A stretch of DNA of 63,201 nucleotides, taken from NCBI GenBank assembly GCA_018813815.1, contig JAHJAY010000026.1, forward strand, positions 1 through 63,201, given 5' to 3'. The notes under the pieces are model-generated. The model saw only the letters and a list, made by a program, of their open reading frames with translations. It was not told the DNA's origin and did no database searches. The position numbers and the translations under genes were made by a program. Position 1 is the stretch's first letter, and every line of letters begins with the position of its first letter. Origin of the DNA: Patescibacteria group bacterium (GTDB lineage Bacteria; Patescibacteriota; Microgenomatia; UBA1400; JAHJAY01). This document shows positions 6,053 to 63,040 of the stretch, piece by piece.

Positions 6053-7345
6053 ATGAAGATTGTGGTTGTTGGTACGGGATACGTTGGTTTAGTGACAGCG
6101 GCGATCATGGCCAAATTTAACCACCAAACAGTTGGTCTTGATATTGATGCGCTTAAAATTAAAAAACTCAATCAAGGGAAACCGCCTTTTTTTGAAGCCG
6201 GCTTAGAAGATTTGCTCCAGGCCGGTATTAAGAAGAAGCGCCTTAGTTTTACTACCAGCTATCGATCAGCCATTACTGGCGCTCAAGTGGTATTTATTTG
6301 TGTGGGTACTCCCTCCAAGGATAGTGGGGAAATTGACCTTTCATATATTAAACAGGCTTGTAAATCAGTGGCCCGGGCCATGAAAGGACCTTTATTATTG
6401 GCGATTAAAAGCACGGTGCCTCCCGGAATTCAAACGGTTATTAAACCCATTATTAAACAACATACAAAATACGATTTTGATTTGGTTACTTGTCCTGAAT
6501 TTTTAAGAGAAGGCAGCGCAGTTGAAGACAGTCTGCATCCCGACCGAATTATTATTGGCGCTGAAAACGATAAAGCGGCTAGCATCATATTAAAACTTCA
6601 TCAGTCAATCAAAGCGCCTAAACATGTTTTTGATATTAACTCGGCGCAATTAGTTAAGTATTCGGCCAATGCTTTTTTGGCTAATAAAATTTCTTTTGCC
6701 AATCAGATTGCCAATTTGTGTGATCGTGTGGGTGCTGACGCTAAATTAGTTATGTTTGGGCTTGGGCTTGATCGGCGAATTGGTAAAGATTTTTTAAATC
6801 CCGGTTTAGGTTTTGGCGGCAGTTGTTTTCCTAAAGATAATGCGGCGATTTCGTTTTTAGCCAAACAACACGGCTTTAGTTTGATTATGGTTGATACGGC
6901 CCGCAATATTAATGAGCAGCAGGTGGATATAGTTTTTAATAAATTGGTTAAACTTCTCGGACCATTAAAAGGCAAGACTGTGGCGGTTTTAGGCTTGGCT
7001 TTTAAACCGGGAACCGATGATATGCGTCAGGCGCGTTCAGTTCCCTTAATTAAGAACATCGTTAAAGCCGGCGCCCGGGTTAGAGTTTATGATCCGGCGG
7101 CTATCTCTAATGCCCGGAGGTTTTTAAAAAGCTTAAAAATTATTTACAGCACCAGCGCTTATCATGCGATTGAAACGGCCGATGCCATGGTTTTAGTAAC
7201 TGAATGGCCCGAGTTTGCCAAGCTTAATTTTAAAGCCATTAAACGTTTAATGAAGCAGGCGATTGTAGTTGATGGCCGGAATCTTTTTGAGCCGGCAAAA
7301 CTGAAAAAACTGGGCTTTAAATATTTAGGGGTTGGCAGAAGATGA
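6053..7345 (+). CDS. ugd: UDP-glucose 6-dehydrogenase (nucleotide-sugar dehydrogenase family)
   Basis: N-terminal Rossmann MKIVVVGTGYVGLV. Catalytic-Cys motif GFGGSCFPKD. Length 430 aa. Confidence 0.85.
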   Translation: MKIVVVGTGYVGLVTAAIMAKFNHQTVGLDIDALKIKKLNQGKPPFFEAGLEDLLQAGIKKKRLSFTTSYRSAITGAQVVFICVGTPSKDSGEIDLSYIKQACKSVARAMKGPLLLAIKSTVPPGIQTVIKPIIKQHTKYDFDLVTCPEFLREGSAVEDSLHPDRIIIGAENDKAASIILKLHQSIKAPKHVFDINSAQLVKYSANAFLANKISFANQIANLCDRVGADAKLVMFGLGLDRRIGKDFLNPGLGFGGSCFPKDNAAISFLAKQHGFSLIMVDTARNINEQQVDIVFNKLVKLLGPLKGKTVAVLGLAFKPGTDDMRQARSVPLIKNIVKAGARVRVYDPAAISNARRFLKSLKIIYSTSAYHAIETADAMVLVTEWPEFAKLNFKAIKRLMKQAIVVDGRNLFEPAKLKKLGFKYLGVGRR

Positions 7346-8292
7346 AAAAGACGGCTTTGATTACTGGCATTACCGGTCAAGATGGCTCTTATTTAGCCGA
7401 GCTGTTATTAAAAAAAAACTATCAGGTAGTTGGTCTAATCAGCCGGAAGCATAGCATTGGCAATGATAATATCAAAGCCATTAAAGCTCAGCTTATTCTT
7501 GAAGCAGGTGACTTACTTAACAAAGCTTCTTTAAAAAAAATTATTCTTAAACATCAGCCAGAGGAAATTTATAATTTGGCGGCTGTCAGTTTTATTCCTG
7601 CCAGTTGGGATCAACCTAGTCTTAGTTTTAATATTAACACTTTGGGTTTAGCCCGGATCCTGGAACTGGTTAAAGATCATTTGCCCAAAACGCGAGTTTT
7701 TCAAGCTTCTTCGGCTAAAATATTCGGCCGGCCTGAAAACAGTTTGGTTGATGAGCAGACATTGATTTCCCCCCGCGATCCTTATGCTGTTTCCAAAGCC
7801 GCGGCCCATTTTTTAATTCAAGCCTTTAGAGTTAAATTTGGACTTTTTTGCTGTTCAGCCATTATGTTTAATCATGAATCGCCTCGCCGGGGTTTGAATT
7901 TTTTGACCCGTAAAATTATTCATGGAGCAGTGCAAATAAAACAGGGCAAACAAAAAATCCTGGCTTTAGGCAACCTTGCCGCTCAGGCTGATTGGGGTTA
8001 TGCGCCCGAATATACAACTGCCATGTGGTTAATGCTGCAGCAGAATCAAGCCGAAGATTTTGTTTTAGCCACCGGGAAATTGCATTCAGTTAAACAAGTT
8101 TGTCAGGCGGCCTTTAATTGTCTTGACCTTGATTATCAAAAATTTGTTACAATAGATAAGCGCTTTTATAGAAAAGCCGAAGCGGCTTTTGCCGGCAATC
8201 CGGCCAAGGCTAAACAGCTTTTGGGCTGGAAGCCGGAAACGGATTTTAAACAATTGATTAAAATAATGGTTAAAGCCGAACAGGAGAGATGA
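7342..8292 (+). CDS. GDP-mannose 4,6-dehydratase-like SDR, divergent paralog lacking the catalytic Glu
   Basis: ALITGITGQDGSYLAELLL, YAVSK (YxxxK) and MFNHESPRRG are present. The active-site strand reads QASSAKIFG, where canonical GMD has S/T-S-E. ATGA overlap with the ugd stop. Confidence 0.75.
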   Translation: MKKTALITGITGQDGSYLAELLLKKNYQVVGLISRKHSIGNDNIKAIKAQLILEAGDLLNKASLKKIILKHQPEEIYNLAAVSFIPASWDQPSLSFNINTLGLARILELVKDHLPKTRVFQASSAKIFGRPENSLVDEQTLISPRDPYAVSKAAAHFLIQAFRVKFGLFCCSAIMFNHESPRRGLNFLTRKIIHGAVQIKQGKQKILALGNLAAQADWGYAPEYTTAMWLMLQQNQAEDFVLATGKLHSVKQVCQAAFNCLDLDYQKFVTIDKRFYRKAEAAFAGNPAKAKQLLGWKPETDFKQLIKIMVKAEQER

Positions 8293-8293
8293 A

Positions 8294-9253
8294 ATGATTA
8301 AACAAAAAAAAGCCCTAATTACCGGTATTACCGGCCAGGACGGTTCTTATCTGGCTGAGTTTTTGTTGGCAAAAAACTATCAAGTTTATGGTCTGGTCCG
8401 GAGAACCAGTATTCCCAGCTATGAGAGAATAAAAGACATTAAAGATAAAATCAAGTTGATTTCCGGTGATTTGACTGATCAACATTCTTTAACTTATGCA
8501 GTTAGGCAAGTTCAACCCGATGAAGTTTATAATTTGGCGGCTCAAAGTTTTGTTCATACTTCTTTTGACCAGCCGGTGTTAACCGGTGCAGTGACGGCTT
8601 TGGGAGTAGCCAGGGTGTTAGAGGCAGTCCGTTTAGCTAGCCCTAAGGCTAAGTTTTATCAAGCTTCTTCTTCAGAAATGTTTGGCCGGGTAAGACAAAA
8701 ACCCCAGAACGAAGCCACCCCTTTTTATCCCCGCAGTCCTTATGGTGTAGCTAAGGTTTATGGCCACTGGATTACAGTTAACTATCGGGAGTCTTACAAT
8801 ATGTTTGCTGTTTCGGGAATTTTATTTAACCATGAATCGCCCAGGCGGGGTTTGGAGTTTGTGACGCGGAAAATTAGTAATGCAGTTGCCCGGATTAAAC
8901 TTGGCCAGCAAAAAAAACTCTATCTTGGCAACTTGGATTCAAAAAGAGATTGGGGTTATGCGCCGGATTATGTGGAAGCAATGTGGTTGATGCTTCAACA
9001 GGATAAAGCTGAAGATTTTGTCATTGGTACCGGAAAAACCTGGTCAGTGCGCCAGTTTTGCCAAAAGGCTTTTGCGGTTGTTGGGCTTAATTGGCAGGAT
9101 TATGTTGAAGTCAAAAAAGAATTTATGCGCCCGGCAGAAGTGGATTATTTAGTAGCTGATTTTACTAAAGCCAAAAAATTGCTTGGTTGGCAGCCAAAAA
9201 TCGGCTTTGACCAATTAGTTAAAATTATGGTTGAAACTGATTTAAAAACCTAA
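8294..9253 (+). CDS. gmd: GDP-mannose 4,6-dehydratase
   Basis: ALITGITGQDGSYLAEFLL, QASSSEMFG, SPYGVAKVYGHWITVNYRESY, LFNHESPRRG, RDWGYAPDY. These match the canonical GMD motif set. Confidence 0.9.
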   Translation: MIKQKKALITGITGQDGSYLAEFLLAKNYQVYGLVRRTSIPSYERIKDIKDKIKLISGDLTDQHSLTYAVRQVQPDEVYNLAAQSFVHTSFDQPVLTGAVTALGVARVLEAVRLASPKAKFYQASSSEMFGRVRQKPQNEATPFYPRSPYGVAKVYGHWITVNYRESYNMFAVSGILFNHESPRRGLEFVTRKISNAVARIKLGQQKKLYLGNLDSKRDWGYAPDYVEAMWLMLQQDKAEDFVIGTGKTWSVRQFCQKAFAVVGLNWQDYVEVKKEFMRPAEVDYLVADFTKAKKLLGWQPKIGFDQLVKIMVETDLKT

Positions 9254-9266: not shown

Positions 9267-10379
9267 ATGAAAGCAGTAATTATTATCCCAACATATAATG
9301 AAAAAGAAAATATTGAGCGCACCATTGAGGAGCTGGTTAAAGAGTTGACCAAGATTCCTCAGGGTTATACCGGCCACGTTTTGGTGGTTGACGATACTTC
9401 TCCTGACGGCACAGCTGATTTAGTGCAAAAAAAGATGAAACAATATGACAATGTCCATTTATTAATTAATCCGGACAAAAAAGGTTTAGGAGCCGCTTAT
9501 ATTAAAGGTATAAAATACGCGATTGAGAAATTAAAAGCGGATTTAGTCTTTGAGTTTGATGCTGATGGTTCGCATCAGCCCAAGTATGTACCCGGCATGT
9601 TGGCGGAGATTAAAAATGGGGCGGATGTAGTAGTTGGCAGTCGTTATATTCCCGGCGGTTCAATGCCGGCTGATTGGGGAATTGATCGTAAATTAATTTC
9701 CTATTTAGGTAATTTGATCGCCCGTTCGGTTTTATTGACTTTCCAATATCGGGATATGACTAGCGGTTTTCGGGTGAGTAAAACCAGCTATTTAGCCAAG
9801 ATTGATTTAGACAATTTATTATCCATGCAGTTTGCTTACAAACTACATCTTTATTATGCGCTTCATAAGCTGGGAGCGAAAATTGTTGAGTATCCAATTG
9901 ACTTTATTGATCGGGCCAAGGGCAAAACTAAATTTCCCAAAAATAATATTAAGGATTCTTTGCGGGTAGTTTTTACTCTTAGATTTCGGGAAAGTGAAAA
10001 ATTCATCAAGGTTTGCTTGGTTGGCTTAATTGGTGCGGTTATTCAGTTTTCCTTTTTTAACTTATTAAGGAACTTGTGGTCGCCGGAATATGCTAATGCG
10101 GCGGCAGTCGAGGTGGCGATTGTTTCCAATTTTATAGTTAATAATCTTTGGACTTTTAAAGAGCAGAAAATTAAGAAGGTAAGCAAATTATTAGTCAAAT
10201 TTGCTCAATTTAACCTGGTTTCTTTAGGTTCTTTATTGATCCAGTTTTTAACTATGAAAGCCGGTGTGGCAATTGTCGGCCGCTCGCTTATTGGCGAAAA
10301 TATTCTGGTGTTTATTGGTATCATTATTGGTTTAGGCTGGAATTACACGATGTATACCAAATTGGTTTGGAAGAAGTAA
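9267..10379 (+). CDS. GT2 polyprenyl-phosphate-mannose-synthase-like enzyme fused to a C-terminal GtrA-like 4-TM domain
   Basis: IIIPTYNEKENIE, VVDDTSPDGT and FDADGSHQP (Dpm1-like). The C-terminal roughly 120 aa is hydrophobic with NFIVNNLWTFK and WNYTMYTKLVW (GtrA-like). AGGAGG at 9255-9260. Confidence 0.82.
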   Translation: MKAVIIIPTYNEKENIERTIEELVKELTKIPQGYTGHVLVVDDTSPDGTADLVQKKMKQYDNVHLLINPDKKGLGAAYIKGIKYAIEKLKADLVFEFDADGSHQPKYVPGMLAEIKNGADVVVGSRYIPGGSMPADWGIDRKLISYLGNLIARSVLLTFQYRDMTSGFRVSKTSYLAKIDLDNLLSMQFAYKLHLYYALHKLGAKIVEYPIDFIDRAKGKTKFPKNNIKDSLRVVFTLRFRESEKFIKVCLVGLIGAVIQFSFFNLLRNLWSPEYANAAAVEVAIVSNFIVNNLWTFKEQKIKKVSKLLVKFAQFNLVSLGSLLIQFLTMKAGVAIVGRSLIGENILVFIGIIIGLGWNYTMYTKLVWKK

Positions 10380-10398: not shown

Positions 10399-12552
10399 AT
10401 GAAACAGCTTGATCAGCTCTCGGTTTTTCTCCCGGCTTATAACGAGGAGAAAAATATTGAGGCAACAATTCTGAATGTGTTGGAAACCTTGAAACAGGTG
10501 AGCCGGCTTTATGAAATTATTGTTGTTGATGATGGTTCAACTGATGCCACTGTCCAACGGGTGCTTCAATTAAGAAAAAAAATTAGCGTTCTCCGCTTGC
10601 TTAAGCATAAAACCAATCAAGGATATGGAGCGGCGATTAAAACCGGTTTAAAAGCCTGTCGTTATCAATGGATAACTTATATTGATTCTGACGGTCAATT
10701 TGATTTTTCGGAAATTACCAAACTTCTTAAGCTAAAAAATTCTGCTGATTTAATTATTGGTTATCGCCGCCGGCGATCCGATAGCGGCTATCGCCGAATT
10801 TTACAGAAAATTCTGCGCCTGGTCGGTTTGTCGCTTTTTGGTATTAATGTCAAAGATGTTGACTGTGGTTTTAAATTAATCAAGAAAAAAGTTATTAAAG
10901 CCATTTTTCCTTTGGTAACTAATAGCGCGATTACTGAAACCGAACTGATAGTTCGGAGTGATCGGGCCGGATTTAAGATTAAACAAGTGGCGGTTAATCA
11001 TCATTTGCGCGTCGAGGGCGAGCAGACAGGGGGAAAATTAAAAGTTATTTGGCGGGCGGCTCAAGAGGGGATTAAGCTTTGGTGGTTATTGTTAAACAAA
11101 TACCGGGCCTTAATCGGTTTAGCGATTGCCGCTTTGGCAATTTTTTTACGCTTTTATAAAATAAGGGATTATTTGATTTTTTTAGGCGATGAGGGTCGTG
11201 ATGTTTTAGTGGTTAAGCGAATGTTGTTTGATCATAAATGGACTTTATTGGGGCCAACAGCTTCAGTAGGCGGTTTTTATTTAGGACCAATTTATTATTA
11301 TTTTATGCTGCCGTTTTTGTGGTTAAGCCGCCTTGATCCGGTTGGGCCGGCGTTGATGGTAGCGATTGTTGGCAGTTTAACCGTTGGTTTGGTTTATTTA
11401 GTCGGCCGCCGGCTTAGCGAGTTTACCGGGGTGCTGGCCGCGCTTTTTTACGCCGCCGCACCTTTAATAGTTAATTATTCGCGCAGTTCTTGGAATCCGA
11501 ATTTAGTGCCTTTCTTTTCTTTAATGATCATTTATCTTTTAAACAAAGCTGTGCGTCAGAAAAAAACCGCTTGGTGGCTTTGGGCGGGCGTTTGCTTGGG
11601 AATTAGTTGGCAGCTTCATTACTTGACCTTGATTCTTCTGCCTTTGATTATATTTGCCGGTGTATGGTTGATGCCGCGCCGGTTATGGCTTAAGGCCGGT
11701 GTAAACTGTTTATTGGGAACATTGCTGGCGTTTTCACCTTACTTGTTTTTTGAATTGAGGCATGGTTTTCCTAACAGCCGGACCATTTTTCGTTTTATTA
11801 CGCAAGAGAGCGGGGCAATTGACTGGCGCGCTGATTTTACTGACATTTTTTTAAGAAACAGTTATCGGTTATTAAGAGAAATGTTTTTAGTTCAGTCAGA
11901 CAAAATATTGAAATTAATGACGTTGTTGGCCGGACTGACTGCTTGGGGATTAAGAAAAAAAGCCAGTTTGCTCAGTCTTTGGCTTGTGGGTGGTTTGCTG
12001 ATTTTGGCTTTTTACCGCGGAGCGGTTTATGATTATTATTTTGGTTGGTTGTTTCCGGTGGTGATTATTTTAGCCGCCAGTTTTGTAAACTGGTTTTGGC
12101 AGCGGGGCAGGTTGCTTAAAGCATTGGCTTTAGTTTTAATCGTGGTGATTCTCAATAATTTTTATCAGGGAATGTATTGGCATCAACGGCCGAGCAAAAT
12201 GATTGATCAGGCCGAAGAATTAGCGGCTTTCGTGCTTGATAAAACTAGAGGCGAAGCCTTTAATTTTGCTTTAATTAGCGGCCATAATAGCGATCATGCT
12301 TATCGTTATTTTTTTGAAATTTGGAATCAGCCGCCTTTAGGGTTGGAAGAGCAGGTGGTTCAGCAGTTAATGGTGATTTGCGAAATGGCCGAGTGTCAGC
12401 CTTTGGGACATCCTTTATGGGAAATAGCCGGTTTTGGCCGGGCCGAGATTAGTGGTTCTTGGACTGTTGGTCCTGAATTTAAAATTTATCGTTTAGTCCA
12501 TCATACTGATTCAGTGGAATTGATTGGTCAGCCGGCCATTCAAGGGGGTTAA
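10399..12552 (+). CDS. fusion protein: N-terminal GT2 (polyprenyl-phosphate sugar synthase-like) + C-terminal polytopic GT-C-like domain (series E)
   Basis: N-terminus: VFLPAYNEEKNIE, IIVVDDGSTDAT, DSDGQFD. From about aa 235: multi-TM domain with first-loop FLGDEGRDVLVVKRM and GGFYLGPIYYYFMLP, paralogous to ORF 35398-36783. Confidence 0.8.
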   Translation: MKQLDQLSVFLPAYNEEKNIEATILNVLETLKQVSRLYEIIVVDDGSTDATVQRVLQLRKKISVLRLLKHKTNQGYGAAIKTGLKACRYQWITYIDSDGQFDFSEITKLLKLKNSADLIIGYRRRRSDSGYRRILQKILRLVGLSLFGINVKDVDCGFKLIKKKVIKAIFPLVTNSAITETELIVRSDRAGFKIKQVAVNHHLRVEGEQTGGKLKVIWRAAQEGIKLWWLLLNKYRALIGLAIAALAIFLRFYKIRDYLIFLGDEGRDVLVVKRMLFDHKWTLLGPTASVGGFYLGPIYYYFMLPFLWLSRLDPVGPALMVAIVGSLTVGLVYLVGRRLSEFTGVLAALFYAAAPLIVNYSRSSWNPNLVPFFSLMIIYLLNKAVRQKKTAWWLWAGVCLGISWQLHYLTLILLPLIIFAGVWLMPRRLWLKAGVNCLLGTLLAFSPYLFFELRHGFPNSRTIFRFITQESGAIDWRADFTDIFLRNSYRLLREMFLVQSDKILKLMTLLAGLTAWGLRKKASLLSLWLVGGLLILAFYRGAVYDYYFGWLFPVVIILAASFVNWFWQRGRLLKALALVLIVVILNNFYQGMYWHQRPSKMIDQAEELAAFVLDKTRGEAFNFALISGHNSDHAYRYFFEIWNQPPLGLEEQVVQQLMVICEMAECQPLGHPLWEIAGFGRAEISGSWTVGPEFKIYRLVHHTDSVELIGQPAIQGG

Positions 12553-13305
12553 ATGAAAAAAGTTTTTTTGTCGGTGATTATTCCGGCCTACAATGAAGAA
12601 GGCAACTTGAGTGACAATCGTTTTGTCCAAATGTTAAATTGGTTAAAAAAACAGCCTTTTTCCCAAGAAGTAATTATAGTTGATGATGGCAGCACTGATC
12701 AAACCGCCAAGTTGGTAGCTGAGCTCATTCAGCCATTTAAATTTGCCCGCTTAATTCGCAACCGTCATCATGGCAAGCCATATACGGTTAAACGCGGTAT
12801 TTTAGAATCTTGCGGTCAACTGGTTTTATTTAGTGATTTTGATCAGGCAACACCTATTAGCGAAGTTAAAAAACTGATTAAAAAAGCCCGGAGCGGTTTT
12901 GATGTGGTGATTGGTTCTCGGGAGATTAGCGGCGCTAAACGGGAAAAAGAGCCGGGTTATCGTCACCTGATGGGGCTGGTATTTAATTTTTTAGTTAGGC
13001 TGGTTGTATTTGAAGATTTTACCGATACTCAGTGCGGTTTTAAGTTATTCAGTCAGGCAAGCTCCCGGGCAATTTTCAAACGGCTTTATCACTATGATAA
13101 GCATAAACCCAAACATGCTTTAGTCGGCGCTTTTGATGTTGAGGTCTTATATTTGGCTAAGAAGCTGGGTTATAAAATTGCCGAAGTGCCGGTTAATTGG
13201 CGGCATTATAAAACAAAACGGATTAATCCGCTGCGCGACTCAATTAGCATGACCTTGGAAGTCTTGGCAATTCGTTTTCGCGATGCCTTAGGTGACTATG
13301 ACTAA
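12553..13305 (+). CDS. GT2, dolichyl/polyprenyl-phosphate beta-glucosyltransferase (Alg5)-like
   Basis: SVIIPAYNEEGNL, IIVDDGSTDQT, FSDFDQATP, TQCGFKLF, FDVEVLYLAKKLGY. Confidence 0.78.
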   Translation: MKKVFLSVIIPAYNEEGNLSDNRFVQMLNWLKKQPFSQEVIIVDDGSTDQTAKLVAELIQPFKFARLIRNRHHGKPYTVKRGILESCGQLVLFSDFDQATPISEVKKLIKKARSGFDVVIGSREISGAKREKEPGYRHLMGLVFNFLVRLVVFEDFTDTQCGFKLFSQASSRAIFKRLYHYDKHKPKHALVGAFDVEVLYLAKKLGYKIAEVPVNWRHYKTKRINPLRDSISMTLEVLAIRFRDALGDYD

Positions 13306-14437: not shown

Positions 14438-14442
14438 GTGGA
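14421..14442. repeat. 22-bp perfect palindrome spanning a stop/start junction
   Basis: tccactcacgaTCGTGAGTGGA. Contains TGA 14435-14437 and GTG 14438-14440. Central CGATCG. Confidence 0.9.
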
Positions 14443-25531: not shown

Positions 25532-25549
25532 TAAAATAGGTTGGTAGCT

Positions 25550-42500: not shown

Positions 42501-42507
42501 TAATAAT

Positions 42508-53513: not shown

Positions 53514-54296
53514 TTAAACCACATCGGCAAATAAGCCTTCAAGTTTTTTAAAGATTTTATAACTGACCAATAAAATTATTACACAAACCAAGATAGCGAT
53601 TCCCAGACTGTTAAAATTAGGCGGGGTTTGGTTAAAGACAATCTGGCGGTAAGCATTAACAAAAACCGCCATGGGGTTAAGTTTAAAAATAAACCGGTAT
53701 GATTCAGGCACGATTTCAACCGGGTAAATAACCGGCGTGAGGTACATCCAAAGAGTAATAATCAAGCCAAGAAGATATTGAATATCGCGGTAAAAAAGAT
53801 TGGCGGCAGCTAATAATAAACCCAGGCCAAAAGTAAAAATCAGCTGAGTTAAAAAAACCGGAATCAACCAAAAAATAGTTAGGTTGATTGGTATTTGGTA
53901 AAAAACCATAAACAAAACCAAAATACTGCTGGCCAGAAAAAAATCCACAATTTTTGCCAGAATAGTGCTAATGACAAACAGCTCCCGCGGTAAAGCAATC
54001 TGTTTGATCAAAGAAGCATTGTTTACCAAGCTGTTGGTAGCTGATTCTAAAGACTTGGCCAACAGATTCCAGGGCAGTAAGCCAACATACAGAAAAACCG
54101 GATAGGGAATTCCCCAGGAGGGCACTTTCATGACTACGGAAAAAATCAGAGCCATAACCAGCATTTGGAAAAAAGGGTTGAGAATCACCCAAAAATAACC
54201 CAGAACCGATTGTTTATAGCGGGCTTTAATTTCGCGCGCTGTCAGGTTCCAGAGTAATTCGCGATATTGATAAATCTGTTTAAGATAAACCAGCAC
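53514..54296 (-). CDS. ABC-2 type exporter permease (Wzm/TagG-like)
   Basis: 260 aa, 6 TM. N-terminal YRELLWNLTAREIKARYKQSVLGYFWVILNP, typical of ABC-2 permeases. GTG start. Confidence 0.87.
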   Translation of the reverse strand: MLVYLKQIYQYRELLWNLTAREIKARYKQSVLGYFWVILNPFFQMLVMALIFSVVMKVPSWGIPYPVFLYVGLLPWNLLAKSLESATNSLVNNASLIKQIALPRELFVISTILAKIVDFFLASSILVLFMVFYQIPINLTIFWLIPVFLTQLIFTFGLGLLLAAANLFYRDIQYLLGLIITLWMYLTPVIYPVEIVPESYRFIFKLNPMAVFVNAYRQIVFNQTPPNFNSLGIAILVCVIILLVSYKIFKKLEGLFADVV

Positions 54297-55672: not shown

Positions 55673-56783
55673 TGTTTCAATGTTGGTTTATGCCGGTTCA
55701 GGCGTAGCCAGCTATACTTTTAATTTAGTCAAAGGTTTACTTCAAATTGATAACCAAAACCAATATTGTCTTTTTTATTCTTCTTTAAGGCGGCCGAAAA
55801 ACTTTTATTATCTTGATGAGTTAAAACAACTAGGCGCTAAAGTTTATTCCTATCGTTTGCCGCCAACTTTGCTGCGTTTGCTTTGGAACCGCTGGCACTT
55901 ATTGCCGGTTGAATGGTTAATTGGCAAGGTAGATATTTGGCATTCTTCTGATTATCTCCGGCCGCCGCTTTTATCCGGCACTCAGGCAGTAACTACTTTA
56001 CACGATCTAACTTGGCAGATATTTCCTGAATATCATACTCAAGATGTAATTATTGCCCATCAAAAAAAGATGGCAAAAACTTTAACATATAATGATATGA
56101 TTTTGGCTGATTCTGAGCAAACAAAAGCTGATTTTATTCAGCACTATCCTCAGGCAAAAAACAAAATCATCTTGGCTCCTCTTGGTGTTGATGAGCTTTT
56201 TTTCAAGAAATGGCCAGACAAGGCGATCGGTAAAGCCTTGGAAAAATATGCCATTAAACCGCCTTATTTGCTTTATGTGGGTGCGATTGAACCGCGCAAG
56301 AATATTGATATTTTAATTAAGGCTTTTAATCTGGTGATAAAAAAACAGCCGGAATTGTCTTTGGTTTTAGCCGGCCGGGCCGGCTGGAAAAATGAGCAGG
56401 TCTTTGCAGCTGTAACTAGGCTTAATCTCAAAGATAAGGTTAAGTTTATTGGTTTTGTTGAAGACCGGGATTTGCCTTTAGTTTATCAAGGGGCAAAATT
56501 ATTTGTTTACCCTTCATCTTATGAAGGTTTTGGTTTGCCGCCCTTGGAAAGCTTGGCGGCCGGCACGCCGGTGGTGGCTTATAATTGTCCGAGCTTGCCC
56601 GGAAGCAATAAAAAAATCATTAATGCTCAAGTTTTAGCCACAAACATTCTTAAGCAGCTTGTCAACAATAAGGTTGAGCCAATTAAAATTCTCAATTGGC
56701 AGCAAGTAGCTCAAAAAACTTTAGCAGTTTATTTGGGTATTAAATCTTCAGCAATCTCTAAGTCTTCAATTTCCCCCAGTTGA
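55656..56783 (+). CDS. GT4 (GT-B fold) glycosyltransferase
   Basis: YEGFGLPPLESLAAGTPVV, VGAIEPRKN. The 3' end overlaps the convergent gene by 55 nt. Confidence 0.86.
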   Translation: MRIGIDVSMLVYAGSGVASYTFNLVKGLLQIDNQNQYCLFYSSLRRPKNFYYLDELKQLGAKVYSYRLPPTLLRLLWNRWHLLPVEWLIGKVDIWHSSDYLRPPLLSGTQAVTTLHDLTWQIFPEYHTQDVIIAHQKKMAKTLTYNDMILADSEQTKADFIQHYPQAKNKIILAPLGVDELFFKKWPDKAIGKALEKYAIKPPYLLYVGAIEPRKNIDILIKAFNLVIKKQPELSLVLAGRAGWKNEQVFAAVTRLNLKDKVKFIGFVEDRDLPLVYQGAKLFVYPSSYEGFGLPPLESLAAGTPVVAYNCPSLPGSNKKIINAQVLATNILKQLVNNKVEPIKILNWQQVAQKTLAVYLGIKSSAISKSSISPS

Positions 56784-58546
56784 TAATATTGATTTTCCCA
56801 AAGAATGGTTTTATAAACTAAGGTTTTATTGCCGACAGTTAAATTATTTTTTTCTGCTAGAACCAACTTGATGTTGTCTAATCCTAAACGGCCTCGATAA
56901 TTAGTGTAATAGTTGTTATGAGTAATAATCTTTTGGTTAGTCAGAAAATACTCTCGCCAGAACCTTTTCCACAAACTGTAGTCACCTAAATAAATGTCGT
57001 CGGTAAAAAAAGGTTGATTAAGTGATGCCTGATTAAGTTCGTTAAGGGAAATTAATGATGGGTCGATTATGGTCGGATGCCAATAAACCTGCTTAAGTAA
57101 GCGATGAGCTGACCGTGATGATAATCCGAATACCACTAATAGAACGGCCAATTTAATAATTTGATTTTTTATCTTTCCCAGCCAGCAACTAAGACCAATA
57201 CTAAACAAAACAACCAATATAAAAATCGCATAAGTAATTAATCTGAAGTAGGCATAAAAATTATTAATAATAAAACGATAACTTAAGCCAAAAGCCAAAA
57301 ACATCAATAAATAAACAGAAATTAAATCTCGCTGTTTTGTTTTTTTCAAGCCAAATAGCCAAATAGCCACTACGGGTAAACCAATCAGCCAGCCGAGAAA
57401 TTCTGGTATAGGGCGTGAATAAAAAAGATTATAAAATCCCATAATATCAAATGGGTTGGCATAATTAATTTTTTCCCAACCAATAAAAGTAGTGTCAGTG
57501 GAAAGGTGAAAGACTTTGAGAATTTGATAAATTGCTGTGCCAACTGTAATTGGATTAATCAGCACGGTGAGCAAAGTGATTTTACCTAGCCTAAGTAAAT
57601 GAAGTCGCCGGCTTTTGAGGTTAAATAGTCGCCAAATAACAAACATTACTAGTGGCGCCAGAGCAAAAACTAGACCCTCGGGGTAGATTGAGCTGATGGC
57701 AGAAAAGCTCAGGGCGATTAAAAAGTCGTATTTAGTAAAACGCCTGGTTTTGTCATTGCTATAGCTGATTAATAAAATTATTGTTAAGATAAAAACTCCA
57801 GTAAAAGCAAACTGGCCAAAAAAGACATGATAGAGGATATAAAATAAGGTTGAGTTTAAGCTATAACCAACAAACACCAACAATAACAAATATGGTTGGT
57901 GTTTTGGACCAGTTGTTTTAGCTAGGATATAGACTAGTGGAAAACTGAGAGCAAAAAGTAAATGAAGTAATATGGAAAAAATTTGAAATGACTGAAGCGA
58001 CAATAAGCTGGCAAAAAAACTTAATAACATTGGACTGCCCCAGCGATAGCTGTAATAAATTAGATCACCAACAGAAGTGCTAGCAGGTTTATAGTATTGA
58101 TCAGCCATACGTGGATAAATCGTATGATTAGTTAACCAATCAGCAGTTGTGCAATAGGAAATTGGGTCAAGATTACCAATTGTAAGCGTGGTTGGAAAAC
58201 CGGCTCGGACAATAAGAGGATAAAGGGTTAACAGTAGACCAAAGGTTGTCAATAGTCCAATAAAAAAATTTTCTTTAGTGATTTTAAAGTAAATCTTTTT
58301 CATAAAAATAGCGACGAGGTGAAGACTTGATGCAATAATCAAAATTATTTGATTAGCTTTACTCATAGGAATTTTAAGCAAAGAAAATATTGCTCCGATG
58401 ACTGAAATTAGGATAATCGCCAGCCAGGGGCTGAGCCAGAAATTCCAACGCTGTAGTTTCTTAGGAAGCATTAGAGCGCCAAAACCGTAACCAACAAAAA
58501 ACAAAATAATGGTTATTTTAAAGGTGAGAATAAATATTTCAATCAT
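56729..58546 (-). CDS. large polytopic membrane protein, unknown family (possible GT-C / glycan polymerase)
   Basis: 605 aa, at least 12 hydrophobic segments, soluble C-terminal tail of about 110 aa. 8-nt overlap (ATGATTGA) with the upstream gene. Confidence 0.5.
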   Translation of the reverse strand: MIEIFILTFKITIILFFVGYGFGALMLPKKLQRWNFWLSPWLAIILISVIGAIFSLLKIPMSKANQIILIIASSLHLVAIFMKKIYFKITKENFFIGLLTTFGLLLTLYPLIVRAGFPTTLTIGNLDPISYCTTADWLTNHTIYPRMADQYYKPASTSVGDLIYYSYRWGSPMLLSFFASLLSLQSFQIFSILLHLLFALSFPLVYILAKTTGPKHQPYLLLLVFVGYSLNSTLFYILYHVFFGQFAFTGVFILTIILLISYSNDKTRRFTKYDFLIALSFSAISSIYPEGLVFALAPLVMFVIWRLFNLKSRRLHLLRLGKITLLTVLINPITVGTAIYQILKVFHLSTDTTFIGWEKINYANPFDIMGFYNLFYSRPIPEFLGWLIGLPVVAIWLFGLKKTKQRDLISVYLLMFLAFGLSYRFIINNFYAYFRLITYAIFILVVLFSIGLSCWLGKIKNQIIKLAVLLVVFGLSSRSAHRLLKQVYWHPTIIDPSLISLNELNQASLNQPFFTDDIYLGDYSLWKRFWREYFLTNQKIITHNNYYTNYRGRLGLDNIKLVLAEKNNLTVGNKTLVYKTILWENQYYQLGEIEDLEIAEDLIPK

Positions 58547-60767
58547 GAATGTTTTCTTCTAAATAGGCTTGGTAAAATTTAGCCGCAAATTTTCTTCTGT
58601 CTTCACTATTGGGTATTACCTGAGACATTTGATATTCTTGGTCAAATATAAAGTGAACAAAGTTGATGCCGCTATTAAATTTTTGGTCAATAGGTATTTT
58701 GTAGGTTTTCATGTCTGGGGATAGAGTAAACGAGGTCACCTTTTTGTGGTTGACATATATAGCTACAGTTTGCGCTTTATAAAAAGCGGCCGCTCTAAAA
58801 TTAAGGTCGAGTTTTCTTGGCTGATTTAGTTTAAACATAATTGAAGATTTTTTCCAGGACCAACGAAAATCTTCTTCCGGAGTACTCCAGCCTCTACCTA
58901 AGAGAATAACATCATTGGAGCTGCTAAATTCAATTGATAAAAACTCTTGGCTATTTGGCACCCTTTCCCATAAAGAGAAAATCCCATCCTGTATAGTTTG
59001 AATAAAGCCCAAATCTTTTAAGACATTGGATAAAGTGGCCGCATAGGGTTCAGTATCATTAAGTAAAAAGTATTTTAAATCCAAAAAATCAATTGCCTCT
59101 AAACTTTTGTCTATGTCAATTTCTTGCCAATTAATCAGATCAGCCTGATCAATATTGCCGTTATGGGCAACATCGGGATCCATTAAGCGCCCAACATAAC
59201 CCCAAAAAGGGTTTTGTTGGTAATAATTTCTTTTGTAAAAAGCAATCCGGCCAAAATAACCAGCTAAAACTGGTTTACCATGGGTCATTTGGCCGGCAAA
59301 AAAATTAATATTATTGCCTTTACCTAAATAAACAAAGCCATCTCTGATAGTAGATGGCGCTTCCATGACAGTTATTTGAGCGGAATCATTGCGGATTTTT
59401 TCATAGGCTTGGTTAGGGAAAAAGTGCTGAGGGGGTGTGGGAACAATAAAATATTGATCCAAAAAAAACACCACTAAAAATATGATGCTAAAACCAATTT
59501 TAAATTTTTTTGATTTGTTTTTTAACAAATGATCTATCAGGTAGGCGGTCACAATGCAGGAGAAAAATGTCGTTCCGACTATCAATCGGCCCGGTACTCT
59601 AATATTAGACATAAAAGGCAAATAGTGAAAAAAAGCATAAGGCAGGGGAAAAACCAGACGAATACCATCACCAACATTTAAACCCCAGCGGCCGGCAATA
59701 TGGAGAAAGGGTCCAAGAGTTAAAGTTAAAAAAACTAGGGTGGTTAGTAAATAAGGGGTAAGCCTTAATACCATCTTTTTGGGAAGCTTCTTTTTAACAC
59801 TAAGCCATAATAAAGTAGCATAAGTACTAATAATAATGATGCCTACATAGGTGGAATTTTCAAATCGTCCCCGGCTAAATTCTAAATGCTTTTCCATAAA
59901 ATTGGCTATTGGTTTTAAAAAATAACTGTAGGTTGTCGGGATAAAAAAGCCTAATAAATCAGAAGAAAACTGGATTGCTCCGGCCCAGCCTTCAACTTTA
60001 GGTAAATCTTCAAAGAGGGAGCTTTGGTAAAGAGTTTTAGCCCAAGGATATAAAAACAGGACAATTAATAAAAAACTCAAGGCCAAATAGCGCCAATTTG
60101 CTTGAATTGTCTCCTTAGCCAATTTTTGTTTAAAGATTAAAGCATAAGTTGTCAATAAGCCAATAGATATGATTAAGATAATAAAATAATAAAGATTTAA
60201 ATAAAGAGTTAGGCTGAAAAATATCGCCAGGCTAATGGCGGCAATGAGTTTGACCAGCGGCTTTTTGATTTTAATTAAAGAGAAAAAACTGTAGTAAAAC
60301 CAGGGAAACATATAGACATTAATATAGGTCCAGTGGCCCATGCGTAGCATTAGAAATGTCATATAGCCATAACTTAGGCCAATTAAAAAAGAAGTTAACT
60401 CATCAACCTTTAAGCACCTAAGCAGGAAGTACATTCCCAGATTAGCGAAAATAACTCCACCAACAGTAAGAATGGCAAAAGTTTGATGAACTGAAAGCCA
60501 GGGTTTAAGTAAAAAATAGAAAAAACCATTACCAGTGTCAGTAGCGGTTAAATTAACGCCAAAAGGATAGAGAATAGTGTTAGTCGGGCTAAAGGGGTTT
60601 TTGCCTTCACTGATGTTTTGAGCTACTTGTTTCATGCCCCATTCAACCGCAAATACTTCGCCGAAGCGTTTGCCGGTTTGAGTATTGTCAACTAAGAGCT
60701 CCCCCCAGAATTTATGATAAAAAATTAAACTTACGACAATATAGGCCAAAAGGATTAATTTTTTCAT
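58539..60767 (-). CDS. large polytopic membrane protein with C-terminal extracytoplasmic domain (series D, copy 2)
   Basis: 742 aa. NPFSPTNTILYPFGVNL, RMGHWTY, IRVPGRL, TIRDGFVYLG. C-terminal EDFRWSWKKSSIMFKL beta-rich domain. Confidence 0.58.
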   Translation of the reverse strand: MKKLILLAYIVVSLIFYHKFWGELLVDNTQTGKRFGEVFAVEWGMKQVAQNISEGKNPFSPTNTILYPFGVNLTATDTGNGFFYFLLKPWLSVHQTFAILTVGGVIFANLGMYFLLRCLKVDELTSFLIGLSYGYMTFLMLRMGHWTYINVYMFPWFYYSFFSLIKIKKPLVKLIAAISLAIFFSLTLYLNLYYFIILIISIGLLTTYALIFKQKLAKETIQANWRYLALSFLLIVLFLYPWAKTLYQSSLFEDLPKVEGWAGAIQFSSDLLGFFIPTTYSYFLKPIANFMEKHLEFSRGRFENSTYVGIIIISTYATLLWLSVKKKLPKKMVLRLTPYLLTTLVFLTLTLGPFLHIAGRWGLNVGDGIRLVFPLPYAFFHYLPFMSNIRVPGRLIVGTTFFSCIVTAYLIDHLLKNKSKKFKIGFSIIFLVVFFLDQYFIVPTPPQHFFPNQAYEKIRNDSAQITVMEAPSTIRDGFVYLGKGNNINFFAGQMTHGKPVLAGYFGRIAFYKRNYYQQNPFWGYVGRLMDPDVAHNGNIDQADLINWQEIDIDKSLEAIDFLDLKYFLLNDTEPYAATLSNVLKDLGFIQTIQDGIFSLWERVPNSQEFLSIEFSSSNDVILLGRGWSTPEEDFRWSWKKSSIMFKLNQPRKLDLNFRAAAFYKAQTVAIYVNHKKVTSFTLSPDMKTYKIPIDQKFNSGINFVHFIFDQEYQMSQVIPNSEDRRKFAAKFYQAYLEENIHD

Positions 60768-60772
60768 AATAG

Positions 60773-63040
60773 TTATTTTAAGTTTAAATTATAAAATTTT
60801 ATCGCCAGATTTCTTTGGTCATTATTATTTTCAAAAACTTCAGCCGGTTTAAAGCTTTGACTAAATTTAAAATCAATAGTGTTAATTCCCGGCTTAAGAT
60901 AGTCAGAGATATTATTAATGGTATAATTATTTTTTTCTGTGCTAATTTGTTTGGTGGCGAGATAGGTTTTGTTAATGTAGATTTTAACTTTTTGAGGTTG
61001 ATAAAATGAGGCGGCGGCAAAAGCAAGTTGGTTTTTATTGCCATCAGTTTTAACAAAAACCTGAGCCGAGTTGTTGATTGTCCAGCGAAAATCGTCCTCA
61101 GAAACACTAAAGTTTTTGGCTGTAAACAAATAATCATTAGCTGAGCCAAAAGCAATTTGGCTGAATTCTTGGGTAGTTAGCGACTTTTCGAATAATTGAA
61201 AACCAACATCTTCCATTTTTAAAATAAAGCCCAGTTGAATTAATAACTCTTTAATAAGTTGACTGTATTTTTCGTCAGTTCTCAGCAACACGTATTTAAT
61301 GTCTAAAAAACTGATTTCTTCTTCAAGAGTGTTTAAATCCGCCTCAAATGAAGTAACTACTGGTTCAGCCGGGCTTTCTTTATAAAGCCGATAATTCCCC
61401 TTGTCGGTGATTTTGAGTATATGACTAATAAAAGGGAGATTTTTATAATAATTAAAAATTGCCGGATTAACTCGGGCAAGATAACCGCCAATAACTGGTT
61501 TTTGGTGAATCAGGGCACCACGCATGATTGAAATTCCATGAACAAAGCCTAAATATTGAAGACCATCGCGAATCGCAAAAGGGATTTCCAGAACTGTGGT
61601 TACTTCAGGATCATTTTTAATATATTCATAAGCTTTTAAAGGGATATTGATTGGTGGTCTGGATGGAACAGTATAAAACTGATCAAAGAAAAATATTAGC
61701 AAAAATAGTCCAACGATAATCAAGCGTTTTTTTCTTGGAACTTTTGATATTTGATAGTTAATAATCGTAGCGGCAACAATAGTAGCCAAAAAAATAAACA
61801 TGGCCATAAAACGAGTTGGTGCTCGAACAGAGCTTAATCCCGGAATTGCTTGGAGTAAAATAAAAGGCAAAGGAAAATAAACATTAATGCCTTCAAGGGA
61901 AATAAACCAGCGATTAGCAATTTTAAGAAAAGGCCCCATGATTAGCAAAATAAAGAAAATGCTGATAAAAAAATAAGGCTTGATTTGTTGATAAATCTTT
62001 TTAGGCAGTTTTTTTCTAAAAAATAACAGATATAAATAGATTGCAATAATGATAATGCCTGGATAAGCAAAACTCTGCCAGCCATGAAAGAAAAAGCTCA
62101 CATATCTAGCGGGTACTAAAGGTTTATTGAGAAGCTTAGAAAATAACCAGTAATAAAAAGGATTATATTCACTGGGAGTAAAAAAATTAACCGCATCAGC
62201 CGATAAAGTGATGGCACCGCCAAAGCCGGGCGTCTTATGTAAGCCACCAGAAACAATTAAGGGAATAGCGCTAATTAACCAGGGAAATAAAAGTAAAATA
62301 AAACTTAAAAAGGAAAAAGGAAGATAAAGAAAGTGAGTTTTTATCAACCTCACTAAAGTTTTTCTTTGCCAGAAAATAAACCAAATAAGGCCAATAAAAA
62401 TGGCGAGCAAAGAGCTTAAAAAATAATAAAAATTAGCTAAAAAAGTAAAAGCCAAAATGAATCCCAGACCAAGAGATAAATAAGTTTTAGTCTTTTTTTG
62501 TTTAGCTTGGAAAAAATTCAGAATCATTAACATCTGTAAAGGAAAAAGGTAAAGAAGGGTGTAAGTATAGTGACCGAGCATGCGGTGAGAAATGAATGGT
62601 GTGTAAGTAAAAATTAAGCTGGCAATCAGGGCCAATAGGCGACTAACTCTGAGCTTTTTTATCAGCAGGTACATAAAAATGCTACTTAAAAATAAATTAA
62701 TTAAGACAATTATTAAGGTGGCCTGATGAATATTAAAAAACGGTCGGAGAACTAGCAAAAAAGGCAGATTAGTAATGGCGTGATCATTAAGAGAAAAGTT
62801 AGTTTCAAAAGGATAAAGAATGCTTTTATTAATAATAAATGGATTTTTGCCTTTTAAAATATTTTGATAACTGGTTTCAGTTAAAAACTCAGTCATTAAA
62901 CCGTCATCAATGATAGTTTGGCCGAAATCAGGAAATAATACCTCTTTAAAAAATTGGTGATTAAAGATAAAATTAACACCAAGAAATAAGATAAAGAAAA
63001 TAAGAGGCAATAATTTTTTATTCATTTGTAAAGTCAACAA
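60773..63040 (-). CDS. large polytopic membrane protein with C-terminal extracytoplasmic domain (series D, copy 1)
   Basis: 755 aa. NPFIINKSILYPFETNF, RMLGHYTY, VRAPTRF, AIRDGLQYLG. C-terminal DDFRWTINNSAQVFVK domain. The track start is TTG 63040; ATG 63028 (MNKKLLPL) is equally plausible. Confidence 0.58.
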   Translation of the reverse strand: MLTLQMNKKLLPLIFFILFLGVNFIFNHQFFKEVLFPDFGQTIIDDGLMTEFLTETSYQNILKGKNPFIINKSILYPFETNFSLNDHAITNLPFLLVLRPFFNIHQATLIIVLINLFLSSIFMYLLIKKLRVSRLLALIASLIFTYTPFISHRMLGHYTYTLLYLFPLQMLMILNFFQAKQKKTKTYLSLGLGFILAFTFLANFYYFLSSLLAIFIGLIWFIFWQRKTLVRLIKTHFLYLPFSFLSFILLLFPWLISAIPLIVSGGLHKTPGFGGAITLSADAVNFFTPSEYNPFYYWLFSKLLNKPLVPARYVSFFFHGWQSFAYPGIIIIAIYLYLLFFRKKLPKKIYQQIKPYFFISIFFILLIMGPFLKIANRWFISLEGINVYFPLPFILLQAIPGLSSVRAPTRFMAMFIFLATIVAATIINYQISKVPRKKRLIIVGLFLLIFFFDQFYTVPSRPPINIPLKAYEYIKNDPEVTTVLEIPFAIRDGLQYLGFVHGISIMRGALIHQKPVIGGYLARVNPAIFNYYKNLPFISHILKITDKGNYRLYKESPAEPVVTSFEADLNTLEEEISFLDIKYVLLRTDEKYSQLIKELLIQLGFILKMEDVGFQLFEKSLTTQEFSQIAFGSANDYLFTAKNFSVSEDDFRWTINNSAQVFVKTDGNKNQLAFAAASFYQPQKVKIYINKTYLATKQISTEKNNYTINNISDYLKPGINTIDFKFSQSFKPAEVFENNNDQRNLAIKFYNLNLK

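Follow-up and report, generated by a model that had tools for sequence, protein, structure and literature searches.

What does a member of the Patescibacteria build with some 20 different polytopic glycosyltransferases encoded side by side? The question is raised by a 57-kb stretch (positions 6053 to 63040) of contig JAHJAY010000026.1 (Patescibacteria group bacterium; assembly GCA_018813815.1), which a first-pass annotation, made from the letters alone, had described as a glycosylation locus with about 20 GT-C-like membrane proteins of 380 to 755 aa. In order to answer it, we mapped the open reading frames (ORFs) of at least 150 aa across the whole DNA stretch analyzed (63,201 nucleotides, here called the window), yielding 47 ORFs, each named by its lowest coordinate. 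All 20 of the polytopic ORFs listed earlier are present in this map and intact, with lengths of 381 to 755 aa, and a crude Kyte-Doolittle hydropathy scan, which is not a topology model, found 6 to 12 transmembrane (TM) segments in each. Five of them have alternative starts (13298, 32127, 35398, 36773, and 44021, against 13292, 32112, 35377, 36761, and 43985 for the longest ORF) that agree with the public gene calls. The 20 ORFs make up 59.5% of positions 6053 to 63040, and the GT-C enzymes alone occupy about 34 kb of the contig. The assignment of all 20 to the GT-C superfamily is supported, the DUF2079 domain of 46496 being the weakest case, and the gene content makes it probable that the stretch is a real, contiguous locus for the biosynthesis of a cell-envelope glycoconjugate, built around extracytoplasmic GT-C glycosyltransferases.

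GT-C assignment of the polytopic ORFs

By BLASTP, the polytopic proteins group into family A (17099, 18670, 36761, and 43985), family B (32112, 33806, 38371, and 40007), family C (the C-terminal part of 10399 and 35377), family D (58539 and 60773), and eight singletons, with 29 to 38% identity within families A to D. Altogether, the 20 proteins fall into at least nine sequence families. Thirteen of the 20 ORFs reach or exceed the Pfam gathering score, all of them on the + strand; 12 pass recognized GT-C families, and 46496 (46496..48628), a GT2/DUF2079 polytopic fusion, passes only DUF2079 (147 bits, with 72 bits for its GT2 domain). PTPS_related, PMT, PMT_2, GT87, and PIG-V are members of the GT-C clan (CL0111 in Pfam) according to PMC7801869. 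PMT_2 was detected in the family B members 32112 and 33806 (32112..35401; 32 to 38% identity within the family) and 40007, in 35377 (35377..36783), and behind a GT2 domain in 10399 (10399..12552), where the PgfS/ArnC-like GT2 domain (residues 1 to 225) scores 106 bits and PMT_2 45 bits and where the GT-C part is 29% identical to 35377. PMT was detected in 38371, which together with 40007 spans 38371..41620, and in 15588 (15588..17102; PMT, 33.6 bits; PMT_2, 30.1 bits), whose profile is linked to family B at 98.3% (hhalign). The PTPS_related family is represented by 17099 and 18670 (17099..20331; PTPS_related/YfhO-like, 18670 also passing YfhO; 30 to 36% identity within family A) and by 36761 (36761..38374; also PMT_2). 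The remaining two are the GT87-like 13292 (13292..14437; 28.3 bits, cut-off 25) and the YfhO-type 28966 (28966..31221; 751 aa, 87.5 bits), the latter linked by hhalign to family A at 99.2% and to family D at 97.2%.

The ORFs below these thresholds were placed by paralogy, by their homologs, or by fold. On the + strand, 43985 (43985..45724) narrowly misses PTPS_related (25.5 bits versus a cut-off of 26.4) and is 30 to 36% identical to 17099, 18670, and 36761. The GT87 and PIG-V matches of 49664 (49664..50845) are themselves below the cut-off, but among its 31 aligned orthologs, PIG-V was found in 18 (best E value, 6e-11), GT87 in 11, and PMT_2 in 11. For 24077 (24077..25531), which lacks a Pfam match of its own, about 20% of the homologs carry PMT_2 (PF13231), some of them being named glycosyltransferase family 39 by NCBI, and its profile is linked to family B at 97.7%. 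Its position beside a Wzx-type gene had made 24077 a candidate Wzy polymerase; this was rejected on account of the GT39/PMT_2-like homologs and the family B link. The 392-aa protein 14438 (14438..15616), likewise without its own Pfam match, has 660 representative homologs; where these have Pfam matches, PMT or PMT_2 falls within the region homologous to 14438, and a profile of the short members is linked to family B at 97.1% over 316 columns. No NCBIfam match was obtained for 14438, 56729, 58539, 60773, 49664, and 43985, and PDB sequence searches with 60773, 56729, 24077, 14438, 33806, and the profile of 49664 returned no meaningful match.

The orphan protein 56729 (56729..58546, - strand; 605 aa) and the family D protein 60773 have no Pfam match (E values up to 0.01), NCBIfam match, or PDB sequence match, and these two of the 20 ORFs were modeled with AlphaFold2. 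Both models are multi-helix bundles of high confidence, with a pLDDT of 91.0 and a pTM of 0.92 for 56729 (alignment of 35 sequences) and a pLDDT of 91.4 and a pTM of 0.90 for 60773 (47 sequences). For 56729, the top 23 Foldseek matches in the PDB are all GT-C-fold proteins (STT3, PglB, AglB, ArnT, ALG9, Pmt4, DPY19, ALG3, and EmbB; best E value, 1.4e-6), and this protein, having no link to GT-C families at the sequence level in Pfam, NCBIfam, or the PDB, is placed by its fold. Full-length matches of 60773 include STT3, AftD, PglB, AglB, and AftA, with E values from 2e-7 to 3e-4 and TM-scores of 0.37 to 0.47, and also Pmt4; overall, the TM-scores are modest (0.37 to 0.48), as expected for remote GT-C pairs. 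The C-terminal β-sandwich of 60773 matches carbohydrate-binding modules (CBMs) of families CBM6/35/36 and the carbohydrate-binding domain of BcsB. The other family D member, 58539, is 33% identical to 60773, with which it occupies 58539..63040 on the - strand; homologs of the family carry DUF6311 (PF19830), and its profile is linked to family A at 97.3%. Although the closest folds include oligosaccharyltransferases (STT3, PglB, and AglB), 56729 and family D were rejected as such enzymes because the WWDxG motif is missing and the similarity is one of fold only: no WWD-type motif occurs in 56729, 36761, 58539, 60773, or 28966, and the single STT3 match in Pfam, that of 36761, is below the cut-off (20.4 versus 24.5 bits).

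Gottesmanbacteria, Roizmanbacteria, or the "Patescibacteria group" account for all named homologs of 56729 and for most of those of family D, which identifies the source as a Microgenomates-type bacterium of the candidate phyla radiation (CPR). The 56729 family, for which Pfam has no model, and the DUF6311-like family D appear to be two undescribed GT-C families without functional annotation. The GT-C nature proposed for the 20 proteins was therefore borne out by Pfam, paralogy, homologs with hhalign, and Foldseek, including for ORFs without any Pfam match, which also show GT-C homology or a GT-C fold.

The first-pass annotation had also placed an acidic motif in the first external loop of many of these proteins. 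The motifs it listed sit directly after the first TM helix, and an Asp at this place is invariant (100%) in 10 of the 12 family alignments, while family D has D or E there in 98% of sequences. A catalytic role of this conserved Asp in GT-C enzymes has been described (PMC7801869). Examples are the FLGDEGRD sequence of 10399, directly behind the first TM helix downstream of the GT2 domain, the W-D-E motif of 32112 and 33806 (D and E both 100% conserved in the family alignment), the SGDD motif of 24077 (both Asp residues 100% conserved), the TDE motif of 15588, the N-F-D-G motif of 49664 (D68 and G69 invariant), D109 of 13292 (conserved), and D77 of 14438 (invariant). In 46496, D283 (YYDFG; residue 38 of the aligned DUF2079-domain fragment) is conserved in an alignment of five sequences. 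The proposed location is less clear for two proteins, namely, 28966 (alignment of five sequences) and 56729, in which the invariant N125 and D127 come after the fourth helix of the model and may or may not lie in the first external loop.

Two groups of relatives have further domains. The most distant family D relatives (P0089 to P0093; 928 to 972 aa; Chloroflexota and Chlamydiota) carry an ILEI/PANDER-like domain (PF15711), which is otherwise known from FAM3 proteins and the stem of POMGnT1. Among the homologs of 14438, P0280 and P0285 (920 to 944 aa) are double GT-Cs with an N-terminal PTPS_related-type and a C-terminal 14438-like PMT-type unit, and many others (P0286, P0288, and about six more; about 690 to 700 aa) have C-terminal MecA_N and PBP_dimer domains without a Pfam match to a transpeptidase. 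MecA_N and PBP_dimer form the pedestal of class B penicillin-binding proteins (PBPs), and these fusions suggest that the 14438 GT-C family is physically linked to peptidoglycan synthesis.

Donor synthases, nucleotide-sugar enzymes, and exporters

Extracytoplasmic GT-C enzymes need donors, and four GT2 proteins of the polyprenyl-phosphate-sugar-synthase type were predicted at the family level, as the first-pass annotation had proposed for four Dpm1/ArnC-like GT2s; the prediction is strong for 9267 and moderate for the other three. The putative polyprenyl-phosphate hexose synthase 9267 (9267..10379, + strand) carries Pfam GT2 and GtrA_DPMS_TM domains and is a full-length homolog of the Pyrococcus dolichol-phosphate mannose synthase (DPMS; 5mlz, E value of 3.5e-44, residues 1 to 368). 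The GtrA domain noted earlier is thus present, but as the C-terminal TM half of a DPMS-type enzyme and not as a separate flippase; no stand-alone GtrA was found among ORFs of at least 150 aa, smaller ORFs not having been scanned systematically. The N-terminal GT2 domain of 10399 (10399N) and the soluble GT2 12553 (12553..13305, +; Pfam and NCBIfam) match the PgfS and ArnC models of NCBIfam, PgfS being the best (72 and 61 bits, respectively, versus an equivalog cut-off of 500). The fourth, the soluble AglJ/PpgS-like GT2 45696 (45696..46499, +), matches the AglJ and PpgS models far below their equivalog cut-offs and has GpgS as its best PDB sequence matches; it is tentatively regarded as a polyprenyl-phosphate sugar synthase.

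Two GT2 domains are fused to GT-C domains, that of 10399, of the synthase type, and that of 46496, of another GT2 subtype and joined to DUF2079. In most relatives, the GT2 homologous to 46496 is a separate ORF of 250 to 300 aa, and where DUF2079 is present in relatives (loci L003 to L006), the same aligned segment holds no GT2 match; the fusion in 46496 appears to be lineage specific.

The set of nucleotide-sugar enzymes begins at the left end of the locus, on the + strand, with the UDP-glucose 6-dehydrogenase Ugd (6053..7345; three UDPG_MGDP_dh Pfam domains; NCBIfam nucleotide-sugar dehydrogenase subfamily, 450 bits, cut-off 190), followed by a Gmd-like short-chain dehydrogenase/reductase (SDR) at 7342..8292 and a GDP-mannose 4,6-dehydratase (Gmd) at 8294..9253. 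The latter passes the gmd equivalog TIGR01472 (448 bits, cut-off 415); the former, with a GDP_Man_Dehyd E value of 6e-102, stays below it (316 bits) and is possibly a GDP-4-keto-6-deoxymannose reductase. Farther downstream are a UDP-galactopyranose mutase (UGM)-like flavoenzyme (42607..44040, +), with full-length PDB sequence matches to eukaryotic-type UGM (E value, 1e-12) and 426 bits against PRK07208.1-4 (cut-off 389), and, within 50886..52792, a GalE-like SDR (50886, +) and a UXS/ArnA-C-like SDR (51815, -), both identified by Pfam and NCBIfam.

Two export routes are encoded. One is a Wzx/MOP-type flippase (21585..23063, +; Polysacc_synt_3), whose NCBIfam matches to Oglyco_Wzx and MOP flippase models are below the cut-offs; the other is an ABC-2 exporter (52776..54296, -; Pfam and NCBIfam) comprising a Wzt/TagH-like ATPase (52776) and a Wzm permease (53514). 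The other transferases are four GT4s and several further GT2s, all on the + strand: a GT2 at 23056..23946, GT2s at 25541 and 27190 and a GT4 at 27918 (within 25541..28982; Pfam and NCBIfam), a GT2 at 31232..32137, a GT4 at 48625..49686, and two adjacent GT4s at 54353..56783, identified by Pfam. Wzx, Wzm/Wzt, GT2, GT4, and nucleotide-sugar genes are therefore indeed interleaved with the polytopic ones. A complete Wzx/Wzy-dependent pathway was not found: a Wzx-like ORF is present, its neighbor 24077 is not a Wzy, and no primer was detected. Of an ABC-dependent glycopolymer pathway, the window has a permease, an ATPase, and a neighboring pair of GT4s, with no primer in its Pfam tables.

Integrity and conservation of the locus

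The genes are tightly packed. From 6053 to 41620, 27 genes all lie on the + strand, overlapping or nearly abutting, with a largest gap of 130 bp. A toxin-antitoxin insert of two - strand genes (41642..42554; an AbiEii toxin by Pfam and a small upstream ORF assigned to DUF6922 in public gene calls) interrupts this array, and + strand genes occur again from 42607 to 51818. A - strand block (51815 to 54296) then contains the UXS/ArnA-C-like SDR, Wzt, and Wzm, followed by the two + strand GT4 genes and the three - strand polytopic ORFs up to 63040. None of the 20 GT-C ORFs appears as a pseudogene in the ORF map, and a tract scan found two homopolymers in the locus, each of 9 nt.

A chimeric or misassembled contig had been named in the first-pass annotation as what would undo its reading. 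The same sequence is also found as NCBI contig JAHJFQ010000009.1 (64,759 bp; GCA_018824845.1), and window positions 23092 to 50017 are matched colinearly, at 99.97 to 99.995% identity, by this contig and by two contigs from the separate Logan assembly (SRR2544004). The comparison spans this central part, with 6 to 23 kb and 50 to 63 kb lying outside it. The locus is real and contiguous at least for 23 to 50 kb, and a chimeric contig was rejected on the grounds of the colinear independent assemblies. The GC content is 0.37 to 0.41 across the window, except in the last 6 kb. There, from 57000 to 63000, it drops to 0.33 to 0.35 (about 0.39 elsewhere), a segment that spans the three - strand GT-C genes. 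This low-GC module is probably not a misassembly, because the same module with the same neighbors is found in a related locus. In that locus (L081, found via a Gottesmanbacteria-named protein), seven consecutive family D- or 56729-like ORFs of 603 to 752 aa abut a GT4-GT4-Wzt-Wzm array, as in the window at 52.7 to 63 kb.

Related loci were collected by a genome scan with 46496 as the query, which returned 77 loci. Their sources are metagenome-assembled genomes (MAGs), some of Shapiro-, Levyi-, Woese-, and Chisholmbacteria, others likewise assigned to Microgenomates or Patescibacteria, and many whose taxon labels are doubtful. Contigs of 0.6 to 0.9 Mb and one complete chromosome of 762,565 bp are represented among the 77. 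In every locus, GT-C-like polytopic ORFs flank a homologous GT2 or, in a few, the DUF2079 domain; these ORFs are mostly family B- or A-like and upstream, with a 49664-like gene and a 10399N-like GT2 downstream. The same GT-C families thus cluster around the same GT2 in all 77 related loci. The 37 loci of at least 20 kb have a median of 5 GT-C-like polytopic ORFs (range, 1 to 10), and the density over all loci is 2.5 per 10 kb versus 3.5 per 10 kb in the window. On CAYJRY010000001.1, two adjacent loci (L004 and L032) bring together 12 to 13 GT-C-like ORFs in about 34 kb. The locus type is a lineage trait, of which the window is a large example and not a one-off. Were the genome as small as the complete Levyibacteriota chromosome (about 0.76 Mb), the locus would take up about 7% of it.

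These comparisons also bear on the age of the paralogs. For most members of families A and B, orthologs in other genomes (40 to 48% identity; 44 to 48% for 38371 and 40007) outscore the best paralog in the window (33 to 38%); 38371, for instance, is 48% identical to an ORF of locus L010 and 38% identical to 40007. Since orthologs elsewhere are closer than paralogs next door, the duplications predate the divergence of these lineages. Recent tandem amplification was rejected for the same reason, the paralogs being 30 to 38% identical and having closer orthologs elsewhere. Being ancient and retained across Microgenomates, the paralogs probably represent functionally distinct steps rather than recent redundant copies.

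Some of the related loci carry unexpected taxon labels. L009 (JAWAAV010000007.1), labeled a Pacearchaeota archaeon, bears the Microgenomates-type GT2/GT-C arrangement, and the same arrangement is seen in dozens of "binchicken" MAG loci (e.g., L003, L004, and L012) labeled uncultured Gammaproteobacteria or Pseudomonadales. The bacterial labels look like placeholders because these loci match Microgenomates loci, and both cases probably reflect mis-binned contigs or placeholder taxon labels; for L009, gene transfer between CPR and DPANN is a possible, less likely explanation.

Proposed function, rival explanations, and known systems

From the gene content, the following scheme can be proposed. 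Cytoplasmic GT2 and GT4 enzymes, together with the nucleotide-sugar enzymes, would build lipid-linked precursors, which Wzx and Wzm/Wzt would export. The DPMS/ArnC-type GT2 synthases would charge polyprenyl phosphate with several different monosaccharides, to be flipped to the outer face, where each GT-C would use its conserved Asp to add one particular residue or linkage from a lipid-linked sugar. The outcome would be a complex surface glycan that is lengthened, branched, and decorated by these combined steps. A lipid-phosphate-linked sugar on the outer face as the GT-C donor, as we infer it, fits the four synthase-like GT2s and the two GT2-GT-C fusions. As the acceptor, a glycopolymer anchored in the wall or membrane is most likely; this is favored because family D has a CBM6/35/36-like C-terminal domain, because the family D, 56729, and GT4 genes adjoin a TagH/Wzt-type exporter, also in L081, and because PBP pedestal domains occur in one polypeptide with 14438-like GT-Cs in relatives.

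Several observations weigh against this reading. Lipid-linked donors and the acceptor are predictions from gene content, and the NCBIfam matches to characterized enzymes, both donor synthases and GT-Cs, are all far below the equivalog cut-offs. Neither a priming phosphoglycosyltransferase (WecA/MraY or WbaP type) nor a Wzy polymerase appears among the Pfam and NCBIfam matches of the window, so that the pathway is incomplete within it; the primer may be located elsewhere in the genome. DUF2079 is presumably a GT-C clan member in Pfam, and its profile links to other GT-C families are weak (80 to 87%, hhalign). In a five-sequence alignment of 28966, no acidic residue behind the first TM helix is clearly conserved, and some GT-C-fold proteins, such as PIG-U, are noncatalytic (PMC7801869).

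The same gene set might instead serve mainly for protein O-glycosylation, with PMT/PMT_2-type GT-Cs modifying secreted or surface proteins (S-layer, pili, or adhesins) in the manner of actinobacterial Pmt or the streptococcal Pgf system. Nine ORFs are of the PMT/PMT_2 type, PgfS is the best NCBIfam match of 10399N and 12553, the Wzx ORF has an "O-glycosylation flippase" model as its best match, and 56729 and 60773 are closest in fold to STT3/PglB. However, the PgfS and other NCBIfam matches are far below the equivalog cut-offs, the WWDxG motif is missing from 56729, 36761, family D, and 28966, and a glycan polymer is suggested both by the CBM-like domain of family D and by the TagH/Wzt exporter module. 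Moreover, the name of a family does not fix the acceptor, since PMT_2/GT83-type enzymes such as ArnT also act on lipids and glycans, and 20 enzymes greatly exceed the complement of known bacterial protein O-glycosylation systems. As the main function, protein O-glycosylation is therefore unlikely, but it is a live alternative or additional function.

Another explanation concerns the use of the paralogs rather than the acceptor. They could be alternative decorators, like the serotype-converting Gtr cassettes, instead of sequential steps, and the varied surface would evade phages or specify host attachment. Consistent with this, the paralog families are multi-copy, copy number and order differ among related loci (1 to 10 per 20 kb), the locus is interrupted by a toxin-antitoxin pair, and each pair of donor synthase and GT-C resembles a three-component Gtr-type module. 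On the other hand, the paralogs are old (33 to 38% identical), and for many of them a closer ortholog exists in another genus; the genes are closely spaced and share one orientation; the GC content is uniform save for the last 6 kb; and neither phase-variation tracts, beyond the two 9-nt homopolymers, nor pseudogenes occur, 20 of 20 ORFs being intact. Phase-variable switching was rejected for the lack of long simple tracts. We regard a diversification toolkit as doubtful, though it overlaps with the glycopolymer proposal and is compatible with either a glycopolymer or a protein acceptor. Finally, the density itself could be an artefact of a chimeric or misassembled contig or of paralogs from several genomes collapsed or concatenated; the source is indeed a MAG, the last 6 kb differ in GC content, and the Logan assembly breaks near 36 to 37 kb, within the paralog array. 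This is highly improbable in view of the colinear NCBI and Logan contigs, of the same neighborhoods in dozens of other genomes, including the 0.6- to 0.9-Mb contigs and the complete chromosome, and of the recurrence of the low-GC module with GT4, GT4, Wzt, and Wzm in L081, while paralogs about 35% identical are too divergent for repeat misassembly.

The proposed glycopolymer locus shares its logic with several known systems. The Gtr system of Shigella phages (GtrA/GtrB/GtrC), CsbB/GtcA/YfhO of teichoic-acid glycosylation, and ArnC/ArnE-F/ArnT likewise combine a GT2 synthase with an outer-face polytopic GT-C, and YfhO, PMT_2, and GtrA-type domains are all found in the locus. Each of those systems has one GT-C and one synthase, whereas the locus has 20 GT-Cs and about four synthases, its GtrA-type domain lies inside a DPMS-type synthase, and two of its GT2s are fused to GT-Cs. 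The Pgf system of Streptococcus mutans (PgfS, PgfM1, PgfE, and PgfM2) similarly clusters the gene of a PgfS-like GT2 with those of an epimerase and of polytopic partners of the GT-C type, but it has two membrane partners versus 20, and the PgfS matches in the locus stay at 72 and 61 bits versus 500.

A resemblance to the mycobacterial lipomannan/lipoarabinomannan (LM/LAM) pathway had been suggested from the letters alone. In the synthesis of arabinogalactan and LM/LAM (AftA-D, EmbA-C, PimE, and MptA-C, with decaprenyl-phosphate sugars), an ABC-2-exported polymer is likewise followed by many outer GT-Cs; the locus also has a UGM-like enzyme and a GT87-like protein, and AftA and AftD are among the best structural matches of family D. 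The analogy holds for logic and fold and goes no further: the window Pfam and NCBIfam tables contain no Emb/Aft-type families (Arabinose_trans and AftA_N) and no arabinose-donor genes for decaprenyl-phosphate-arabinose (DPA) synthesis, and 13292 is below the cut-offs for MptA (34 bits versus 439) and MptB (19 versus 40), so that membership in the mycobacterial GT-C set was rejected. In mycobacteria, the corresponding genes are scattered over a 4.4-Mb genome, whereas those of the locus, in an unrelated lineage, stand in one 57-kb stretch. With the endoplasmic reticulum (ER)-lumen and archaeal dolichol pathways (DPMS, ALG3/9/12, PMTs, PIG-V/M, and STT3/AglB), the locus shares an archaeal-type Dol-P-Man-synthase homolog and the co-occurrence of PMT-like, PIG-V-like, and STT3-like folds. 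The ER-lumen pathways differ in that the locus is bacterial and lacks the WWDxG motif; the Pfam matches of the window ORFs include no ALG-type family, and the eukaryotic pathway genes are not clustered.

The component families are known, and what appears undescribed is the gene density and the two GT-C families; 20 GT-Cs of at least nine families in a single 57-kb locus, with GT2-GT-C domain fusions in addition, are unusual. The earlier remark that this density has no characterized counterpart agrees with our survey, in which the full-text literature on GT-C, GT39, GT83, DUF6311, and DUF2079 in CPR bacteria or Microgenomates yielded no description of such arrays. The nearest published remark concerns one Microgenomates genome with 29 glycosyltransferase genes (PMC7143001), and a PNAS perspective on Patescibacteria nowhere mentions glycans. 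CPR bacteria are portrayed in the literature as pared down in biosynthesis, with polysaccharide metabolism among the reduced capacities (PMC7137472). Arrays common to related loci, mostly labeled Microgenomates or Patescibacteria, imply that an elaborate surface glycan is under strong selection; in an episymbiotic lifestyle, such a glycan is the structure most likely to be in contact with hosts and phages. More tentatively, it is possible that Microgenomates, with genomes below about 1 Mb, keep a lineage-wide outer glycan assembly line approaching the complexity of mycobacterial arabinogalactan/LAM synthesis or of the ER lumen, including at least two undescribed GT-C families and building a major new envelope polymer. 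If so, this polymer could determine the host attachment or phage susceptibility of episymbionts. In any case, the locus supplies two unannotated GT-C families with high-confidence models, natural GT2-GT-C fusions, and a delimited set of genes that could be reconstituted in another host or could guide the analysis of glycans in enrichments.

The statement that almost every ORF in the stretch is glycan related is correct in general, with a few exceptions: the AbiEii toxin and its partner at 41642 to 42554, the class-III aminotransferase 20342, and the EEP-family protein 26443. The AbiEii gene and the small ORF upstream of it are the sole - strand genes between 6 and 51 kb. The class-III aminotransferase (20342..21583, +; Aminotran_3, E value of 4e-82) passes no NCBIfam equivalog, is not of the DegT type usual for sugar amination, and lies inside the co-directional array, as does the EEP-family phosphoesterase-like protein (26443 to 27186, +). 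Directly upstream of the locus, positions 623 to 5629 encode a histidine kinase paired with a response regulator (both on the - strand), as well as a Ser/Thr kinase of 951 aa that lacks a family match for its first 430 or so residues; these proteins could be regulators of the locus.

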